Positions 57,722 to 57,787 of a stretch of 58,279 nt of DNA are shown piece after piece; within the stretch, counting starts at the first letter, position 1, and each line of letters begins with the position of its first letter. Made by a program: the position numbers and the translations under genes. A model generated the notes under the pieces. It saw nothing but the letters and a program-made list of their open reading frames with translations, had not been told where the DNA came from and did not search any database. Source of the DNA: a virus; the IMG/VR virus record IMGVR_UViG_3300045988_062123, positions 1-58,279 of that record; one strand, 5' to 3'.

Positions 57722-57787
57722 TAGCCTATCTCATCAGCGCCGGGAGGCTATCCCGCGGCGGACGCTCCGAAGAGCGTTTCGAAATTA
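57722..57787 (-). ncRNA. Hammerhead ribozyme, type II topology (HHR-A)
   Basis: The minus strand reads UUUC-GAAA-[CGCUC uucg GAGCG]-UC|CGCCGCGGGAUAGCCUCCCGGCG-CUGAUGA-GAUA-GGCUA. C17 is at 57761. The stem I loop UAGCC is complementary to the 3' GGCUA. Confidence 0.8.

Follow-up and report, generated by a model that had tools for sequence, protein, structure and literature searches.

Two type II hammerhead ribozymes predicted to divide an early phage operon mRNA into single-gene messages

The stretch of DNA analysed here (the window) comprises positions 1 to 58,279 of IMG/VR virus record IMGVR_UViG_3300045988_062123, 58,279 nucleotides (nt) in all. Near its end, on the minus strand, an element that we call HHR-A lies between genes for proteins of 38 and 70 amino acids (aa). 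Sequence analysis confirmed HHR-A as a genuine type II hammerhead ribozyme: its match to the family is far beyond chance and is independently backed by covariation in related phages. A second hammerhead of another lineage, HHR-B, separates the 70-aa gene from a 146-aa gene. From family membership, structure, covariation, positional conservation and a predicted single transcription unit we infer that HHR-A and HHR-B cut a tricistronic early mRNA into single-gene mRNAs and thereby insulate the expression of each gene, a reading to which we assign a probability of roughly 70%.

The minus-strand segment 57720–57784 matched the Rfam family Hammerhead_II (RF02276) with 45.3 bits over the full length of the model (positions 1–66 of 66; E = 4.3e-06 with the whole window searched), a score that exceeds the curated gathering threshold of 37 bits. 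This search had been proposed as a check in an earlier note on the same DNA, made from the letters alone, and the coordinates given there for the element (57722–57787) proved right to within 2–3 nt. A hand-written descriptor (CGAAAC..GTC..CTGATGAG) gave two matches in the window, compared with 0.00 expected from 100 dinucleotide-preserving shuffles; these were HHR-A and its sister ribozyme, hit at 57435–57490. A covariance model of our own, built from 11 hand-checked hammerheads, scored HHR-A at 69.2 bits. When the window (E ≤ 1) and 40 related loci (gathering score) were screened for further Rfam families, twister, pistol and hatchet among them, only hammerheads and tRNAs were reported. Read as RNA, the minus strand from 57787 to 57716 is UAA-UUUC-GAA-ACGCUC(UUCG)GAGCGU-C-CGCCGCGGGAUAGCCUCCCGGCG-CUGAUGA-GAUA-GGCUAG-AAAGG, identical to the version written out in the earlier note, and its parts are the following.

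57716–57787, minus strand: HHR-A, type II hammerhead, overlapping the UAA stop of the 38-aa gene and running through the Shine-Dalgarno sequence of the 70-aa gene
57787–57785, minus strand: UAA stop of the 38-aa gene, position checked on the sequence
57784–57781, minus strand: stem II 5' strand, UUUC, directly after the UAA of the 38-aa gene
57780–57778, minus strand: G12A13A14 (GAA), position checked on the sequence
57762–57777, minus strand: stem III hairpin ACGCUC(UUCG)GAGCGU, closed by A15.1-U16.1 (A57777-U57762)
57761, minus strand: C17, with cleavage predicted 3' of it, between 57761 and 57760
57738–57760, minus strand: stem I hairpin CGCCGCGGGA-UAGCC-UCCCGGCG (CGCCG-C-GGG A UAGCC UCCCGGCG)
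57737–57731, minus strand: core CUGAUGA, C3 through A9
57730–57727, minus strand: stem II 3' strand, GAUA, a short strand
57722–57727, minus strand: pseudoknot 3' partner (A)GGCUA, pairing with the stem I loop UAGCC(U) at 57750–57745 (5–6 complementary bases)
57720–57716, minus strand: Shine-Dalgarno AAAGG of the 70-aa gene, 1–2 nt beyond the pseudoknot

The catalytic core is complete (C3 U4 G5 A6 N7 G8 A9, GAA, A15.1-U16.1, a non-G at 17 and G10.1-C11.1, the last formed by G57730 and C57781), and checking each position on the sequence bore out the earlier claim that every invariant core element is present. Stem I consists of five GC-rich pairs, a bulged C and three further pairs. The ribozyme fills the gap between the 38-aa stop codon, which it abuts, and the next Shine-Dalgarno sequence, before which it ends by 1–2 nt; this placement, also described earlier, recurs as the same tight packing across the family. 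All sequence-testable defining features of RF02276 are present in HHR-A, and catalysis is predicted from them. Stem III was also considered as an intrinsic (Rho-independent) terminator and rejected, as it is followed by UCCGCCGCGG and no U-tract; the terminator scan gave no terminator-like site at 57716–57787 on the minus strand.

Using our covariance model, we obtained 86 matches in 92 sources, namely the window and 91 loci of relatives (L numbers below), and more than 80 related phage loci carry the two ribozyme lineages. Across 42 distinct sequences, 97.3% of cells were paired compared with 76.2% in shuffles, both sides had changed in 9 of the 14 pairs, and none of 500 shuffles reached the observed covariation values. 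Sliding the partners as a control lowered pairing to 26–48%. This agrees with the type II topology proposed in the earlier note, with stems I and III closed and stem II open. A second, independent set of 57 matches, taken from loci centred on the RNA ligase gene RtcB, gave the same covariation picture. The A-lineage alignment (25 distinct sequences) had 97.1% of cells paired as opposed to 36–45% with slid partners; stem III was 100% paired and stem I 96.5%, with double changes in two pairs. When the pseudoknot of this alignment was annotated explicitly, 96.0% of cells were paired and three of its five pairs had compensatory changes on both sides, from UAGCC:GGCUA to UGGUC:GACCA and CGGUC:GACCG, which supports the pairing of the stem I loop with the 3' tail that had been suggested from the single sequence. 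The two lineages are distinguished as follows.

A-type lineage (including HHR-A): stem III GCUC/GAGC; pseudoknot UAGCC:GGCUA or UGGUC:GACCA; Rfam scores of 44–70 bits
B-type lineage (including HHR-B): stem III CCGCC/GGCGG; pseudoknot UGCCC:GGGCA or GGCU:AGCC; Rfam scores below threshold

HHR-A lacks an extra U between A9 and G10.1 that is carried by its closest lineage relatives. About half of the distinct B-lineage hammerheads have CCGAUGA for CUGAUGA (U4 to C), with helices and pseudoknot otherwise intact (L004:2912-2982, L020, L021, L025, L049, L051, L006 and many B-type copies in L175–L251); this may be a tolerated natural core variant. The copy at L006:2913-2982 additionally carries G12A, and the copy at L007:24-93 has a core deletion.

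HHR-A is one of two ribozymes in a compact gene cluster, whose features are these.

57934–57962, minus strand: operon promoter TTGACA-17-TACAAT with extended -10 TG, 11 of 12 consensus matches
57785–57901, minus strand: 38-aa gene upstream of HHR-A, an open reading frame (ORF) with a GGAGA Shine-Dalgarno sequence
57495–57707, minus strand: 70-aa gene between HHR-A and HHR-B, ATG at 57707; no function assigned by sequence search
57467–57760, minus strand: 294-nt RNA between the two predicted cuts, derived from the predicted cleavage sites
57424–57493, minus strand: HHR-B, second type II hammerhead, of the other lineage, between the 70-aa and 146-aa genes
56960–57400, minus strand: 146-aa gene directly downstream of HHR-B, the hammerhead-preceded gene conserved in relatives
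56937–56953, minus strand: terminator-like hairpin GGGCG..CGCCC followed by UUUUGG, after the 146-aa gene

HHR-B begins three bases past the 70-aa stop codon, and its end comes just ahead of the Shine-Dalgarno sequence that serves the 146-aa gene. Its core is complete, a cut is predicted between 57467 and 57466, and a 4-bp pseudoknot is possible (GGCU:AGCC). Against RF02276 it scored 35.1 bits (E = 2.9e-4 in a permissive scan of 8 kb), just under the gathering score, so a threshold-only Rfam scan overlooks it; our own model gave 78.9 bits. The HHR-B lineage is kept, with covariation, ahead of the 146-aa gene homologue in relatives. The earlier note had overlooked that HHR-A is one of two hammerheads, as it had the conservation across a large phage family and a precedent published in 2011 (PMC3088659).

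The hairpin at 56937–56953 is the only terminator-like site on the operon strand, with none between it and the promoter, and from the scans for consensus promoters and terminators a single transcription unit is predicted to hold all three genes together with the two ribozymes. The predicted operon diverges from a Cro/CI-type helix-turn-helix (HTH) gene starting at 58049. A 14-bp palindrome, CACTTT-NN-AAAGTG (CACTTTCAAAAGTG at 57941–57954), lies inside the 17-bp spacer of the operon promoter; the same palindrome is found at 131–144 (plus strand), in the spacer of a promoter TTGACT-17-TATACT (123–151, plus strand) just after the HTH gene. Both promoters are strong. Two matches compare with 0.34 expected by chance, and the palindrome probably serves the two promoters as a common operator, to which the Cro/CI-type HTH protein encoded next to them may bind.

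In the reading that we favour, one mRNA would start at the promoter (57962), run through the 38-aa gene, HHR-A, the 70-aa gene, HHR-B and the 146-aa gene, and end at the terminator-like site (56953). Each hammerhead would fold into its three-way junction on the nascent RNA once the CUGAUGA strand has been transcribed, with the pseudoknot between loop I and the 3' tail keeping stems I and II parallel. The 2'-OH of C17 (57761) would then attack its own phosphate, cutting between 57761 and 57760, and HHR-B would cut in the same way between 57467 and 57466. The upstream mRNA would end in the GC-rich stem III and C17 with a 2',3'-cyclic phosphate; the downstream mRNA would start on a base-paired nucleotide, the first of stem I, bearing a 5'-OH and leaving nothing unpaired ahead of it, and its Shine-Dalgarno sequence would follow 1–2 nt past the pseudoknot. 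Because the topology is type II, each cleavage product would end in a ribozyme hairpin. Double cleavage would release the 294-nt RNA, bearing a 5'-OH and a 2',3'-cyclic phosphate, which contains the 3' part of HHR-A, a Shine-Dalgarno sequence, the entire 70-aa ORF and the 5' part of HHR-B. The stability and translation of each cistron would be freed from its neighbours and from the gene in the variable slot described below, an insulation that would be useful where neighbouring genes are often exchanged. Tandem prophage hammerheads cleave in vitro and in vivo, and their published interpretation is likewise the processing of single-gene mRNAs (PMC3088659); in Desulfovibrio vulgaris, three type II hammerheads are active in cells, two of them beside an HTH gene (PMC8782182).

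Several points weigh against this interpretation. A 2019 review still calls the role of bacterial and phage hammerheads elusive (PMC6765202). Stem II is weak in HHR-A, with just two Watson-Crick pairs before U.U and then U-A, and 45.3 bits is the lowest Rfam score within its lineage. In thermodynamic folding, the energy of HHR-A is no better than that of shuffled sequence (z = 0.12), and although its minimum-energy fold reproduces stems I and III, stem II appears in a shifted register. HHR-B falls under the Rfam cut-off, its minimum-energy fold is without stem I, and its folding energy is likewise not distinguishable from shuffled sequence (z = -0.81). As stability fails to separate the ribozymes from shuffles, the evidence for them rests on the covariance model and covariation. 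Moreover, work in Bacillus by Collins et al. in 2007 reportedly found that the ribozyme-made 5'-OH marks the glmS mRNA for decay by RNase J1. Cleavage could on that ground destabilise rather than protect the downstream mRNA, and the direction of its effect on that mRNA is uncertain.

A comparison of the relatives reveals fixed ribozymes and exchanged genes. Most of them place a hammerhead ~20 nt ahead of their homologue of the 146-aa gene; in many, another lies 240–460 nt farther upstream, and in some there is a series of three, spaced 330 and 462 nt apart. The gene in the slot between the A-type and B-type ribozymes varies, with at least five unrelated genes among relatives.

70-aa gene: the window
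127–129-aa gene: L001, L029, L051
74-aa Cys-rich gene: L004, L006, L026
53-aa gene: L032
78-aa gene: L048

The window and L001 are 96% identical over 57790–57692 (HHR-A, the Shine-Dalgarno sequence and the first 16 nt of the ORF) and 92% identical over 57496–56901 (HHR-B and the 146-aa gene), whereas the gene bodies between these blocks are unrelated (70 aa versus 127 aa), the block edges being the ribozymes. L003 is without both the 70-aa gene and HHR-B. In the assembly collection, 104 blocks contain the exact 70-aa protein, each time in an unchanged context, and the 38-aa gene homologue is kept in L001–L003 and L384–L392. At nine loci examined, from independent assemblies, HHR-A is identical but for its stem III loop and stands behind three different upstream genes; this loop reads UUCG, UGCG or UCCG among near-identical phages.

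Chimeric or truncated hammerheads were seen at L235:1-88, L251:3249-3318, L253:2410-2476 and L217:541-614. The L235 copy joins the 5' half of an A-type ribozyme to the 3' part of a B-type one, and the other three copies end before or within CUGAUGA; judged from their sequences, they look like recombination or deletion scars at ribozymes. Unrelated phages carry distant homologues of the 70-aa protein (36–39% identity; L078:3213-3285, L086:896-968, L088 and L089:3212-3293), each with either a tRNA gene or a type II hammerhead within ~10 nt downstream. RNA-processing signals of two kinds occupy this one site.

This pattern invites an explanation at the level of DNA, in which the ~70-bp hammerheads are valued mainly as junctions, or portable homology, for swapping, inserting and deleting single-gene cassettes, and in which cleavage may coexist. 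Promoter-stem-loop cassettes that mediate modular shuffling have been reported in T4-type phages and offer a comparison. The homology blocks that begin and stop at the ribozymes, the number of unrelated genes in the slot, the joint absence of the 70-aa gene and HHR-B from L003, the identical HHR-A behind three different genes and the chimeric and truncated copies all fit such a role. However, conservation tracks RNA structure, with compensatory changes in all helices and the pseudoknot, and a catalytic core is retained that recombination homology alone does not require. The same blocks would also be expected if the ribozymes were merely under stronger purifying selection than the accessory genes. 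We regard it as unlikely that exchange is the main reason for their presence.

The genome also encodes an enzyme that could act on the predicted ends.

4346–5554, plus strand: RtcB RNA ligase (Pfam PF01139, 2.6e-58; phrog_1075, 2.4e-127), immediately upstream of the large terminase

Relatives of this RtcB occur in at least 194 viral contigs, the best 80 at 93–98% identity. The 294-nt segment 57760–57467 might accordingly be excised and closed, by the phage RtcB or by the hammerhead reverse reaction, to give a circular mRNA that encodes the 70-aa protein and resists exonucleases, or the flanks might be re-ligated, which would splice the gene out. RtcB substrates carry exactly the ends that hammerheads produce (PMC8782182), tRNA ligases circularise hammerhead-cut viroid RNAs (PMC6765202), and 36 of the 80 RtcB-centred relative loci have 1–3 hammerheads within 10 kb. 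Going by the sequence, closing the segment would restore an entire type II hammerhead, a hybrid whose stem II has C-G, U-A and G-U, across the predicted junction ...GGGCGGUC/CGCCGCGGG... (also written ...GCGGGCGGUC/CGCCGCGGGAUAGCC...; the slash marks the joint). We searched metagenome and viral contigs for the junction pattern GGCGGTCMGCCGYGGGAT, which joins the HHR-B stem III 3' strand to an A-type stem I; the 130 matches examined all lacked the GAAAC and CUGAUGA context and are chance matches in GC-rich genomes. No hammerhead was found within 1.5 kb of RtcB in the 80 relatives, and spliced or circular products of clustered prophage hammerheads were sought by Perreault et al., who found none (PMC3088659). 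Each of the 34 relatives scanned has 1–6 tRNA genes upstream of RtcB, the classical context of tRNA repair, and these arrays explain the RtcB gene without ribozymes. Literature searches found no link between phage RtcB and hammerheads. A broader version, in which ribozyme-bounded single-gene units are released and closed, by RtcB or hammerhead ligation, into translatable, exonuclease-resistant circular mRNAs and their boundaries double as cassette-exchange junctions, is in our estimation distinctly unlikely; if true, prokaryotes would have a natural system in which ribozymes define circular mRNAs or gene cassettes. Excision with closure or re-ligation of this particular segment we consider very unlikely.

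In the window itself ARAGORN found no tRNA. A region of ~950 bp without a convincing ORF (2400–3340, plus strand) has three tRNA T-arm-like motifs near 2668–2680, 2950–2964 and 3196–3210, and the Rfam tRNA model matched 3159–3218 with 30.4 bits (gathering score 29). The 60-nt element at this position has a full acceptor stem and T arm with shortened D and anticodon regions. At the DNA level the region shows no homology to the relatives' tRNA arrays; it may hold decoys that resemble tRNAs, remnants of tRNAs or a larger non-coding RNA beside RtcB. Among relatives, ARAGORN also reported tRNAs with anticodon UUA, which would read the UAA stop (L190:1371-1465 and L201:1077-1171, both minus strand; L224:6375-6446; L245:5690-5761). 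Those in L190 and L201 are on the strand opposite RtcB and the same as the hammerheads, in L201 ~630 nt from one; they may be suppressor tRNAs or false positives.

HHR-A could instead act as a conditional switch, its folding governed by a ribosome terminating on the UAA, by a protein or by a ligand, so that downstream expression is coupled to upstream translation. The stop codon is 0 nt from the stem II 5' strand and overlaps that strand in most relatives (UAG-CC-GAA or UAG-UC-GAA); going by known ribosome footprints, stem II, G12-A14 and half of stem III would all lie beneath a ribosome during termination. On the other hand, the hammerhead is minimal, with no extra conserved domain or aptamer-like insertion, and the tight packing is equally explained by genome economy. 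Cleavage is also irreversible and, for pseudoknotted members of this class, fast, at >1 per minute at 0.5 mM Mg2+ in the example tested (PMC3088659), so a ribosome sitting there briefly would only delay it. We find a regulatory switch highly unlikely. That HHR-A is a decayed or chance hammerhead-like sequence without activity, as its weak stem II and unremarkable folding energy, the core changes of some relatives (CCGAUGA, G12A or the L007 deletion) and the truncated copies might suggest, is scarcely credible given its full set of invariant core nucleotides, a score above the curated threshold (E = 4.3e-06) with a descriptor expectation of 0.00, its near-identity across nine independent assemblies and lineage-wide covariation that includes the tertiary pseudoknot.

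The 38-, 70-, 146-, 43-, 74- and 98-aa proteins gave no match in sequence searches of Pfam, PHROGs and the PDB. Homologues of the 146-aa protein, whose conserved gene has a hammerhead ahead of it in relatives, were found at 52 viral loci on contigs mostly of 55–60 kb. Its AlphaFold model has a mean predicted local distance difference test score (pLDDT) of 80.5, reaching ~90 in the N-terminal domain, where residues 1–75 are modelled as a small beta-barrel. The best 36 PDB matches to this barrel are all eIF5A or EF-P chains, and it matches their domain I (KOW-like; best E = 6.5e-4, root-mean-square deviation 1.8–2.5 over 62–70 columns). The modelled N-terminal barrel thus resembles EF-P/eIF5A domain I. 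Pfam EFP_N gave weak matches in 2 of 25 family members (best E = 0.0052), and the family profile gave no significant sequence alignment with E. coli EF-P. In many relatives the homologue consists of the barrel domain alone (75–79 aa).

The window has an exact 99-bp direct terminal repeat (bases 1–99 equal 58181–58279) and is therefore a complete phage genome, circularly closed or terminally redundant; the HTH gene from 58049 extends through the repeat. Encoded are a large terminase, portal, major head protein, 1576-aa tape measure, primase/helicase and integrase. The GC content of the genome is 36–40%, versus ~60% for the ribozymes. By major head protein the nearest isolate is Clostridium phage Maintenon (52% identity). 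The operon DNA had no match among 50,697 phage records, and a host search among genome contigs returned two uncultured metagenome-assembled contigs only, with no host assigned. The phage is an uncultured, siphovirus-like gut phage with a complete genome of ~58 kb and a Bacillota-type host.

Both the ribozyme and its gene-bracketing arrangement have been known since 2011 (PMC3088659); the family has thousands of representatives, and the genomic setting is a usual one. Our literature search for newer functional work on phage hammerheads added nothing to the papers of 2011, 2019 and 2021 that are cited here. What phage hammerheads do has been an open question since 2011 (PMC3088659, PMC6765202), for which this phage group is an unusually clean natural experiment: dozens of near-identical genomes, two fixed ribozyme lineages with changing bracketed genes, natural U4C variants, chimeric and truncated copies, a defined promoter carrying a putative operator, and an RtcB of the phage's own. 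Given a host that can be cultured, or a heterologous system, hypotheses of processing, stabilisation, circularisation and cassette exchange would be directly testable.

Compared with the published type II hammerheads of RF02276 (PMC3088659), HHR-A has the same catalytic core, a loop I/3'-tail pseudoknot of 5–6 bp and the bacterial or phage intergenic setting, and differs in nothing essential; its stem II, with two Watson-Crick pairs, is at the short end of the range. Closest in arrangement are the clustered prophage hammerheads flanking single genes, namely the Agrobacterium tumefaciens triple around ardA and the tandems of Clostridium scindens and Azorhizobium caulinodans (PMC3088659). There, as here, two to three same-strand hammerheads per transcript bracket one gene each, the genes vary, and a regulator gene and an integrase are nearby. 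The two marks of that arrangement, same-strand hammerheads bracketing genes in one predicted unit and a phage context with varying genes, are both found in the window, although in a gut phage of another host and lineage, with bracketed genes that have no known function and with two alternating ribozyme lineages. Loc 2 and loc 3 of Desulfovibrio vulgaris (PMC8782182) similarly form a type II pair a few hundred nt apart, beside phage-like and HTH genes; their activity was demonstrated in vivo and in vitro (cyPhyRNA-seq) whereas ours is predicted, and sequences and hosts are unrelated.

In viroids (Avsunviroidae), satellite RNAs and retrozymes, too, a defined RNA is cut free by two hammerheads of the same polarity and carries 5'-OH and 2',3'-cyclic phosphate ends, and an enzyme of the tRNA-ligase type is available, as RtcB is in this genome. 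Theirs, in contrast, are non-coding or retroelement RNAs with demonstrated circles, and their ribozymes are mostly type III or I. A unit of this type was considered and set aside, the 294-nt unit being a Shine-Dalgarno sequence and a 70-codon ORF between half-ribozymes in the operon of a double-stranded DNA phage. Synthetic ribozyme insulators such as RiboJ, engineered from a satellite-RNA ribozyme, cleave off the upstream context and leave a 5' hairpin. In both cases a hammerhead before a cistron would make its expression independent of the upstream sequence; unlike RiboJ, HHR-A is natural and would also supply a 3' hairpin to the upstream mRNA.

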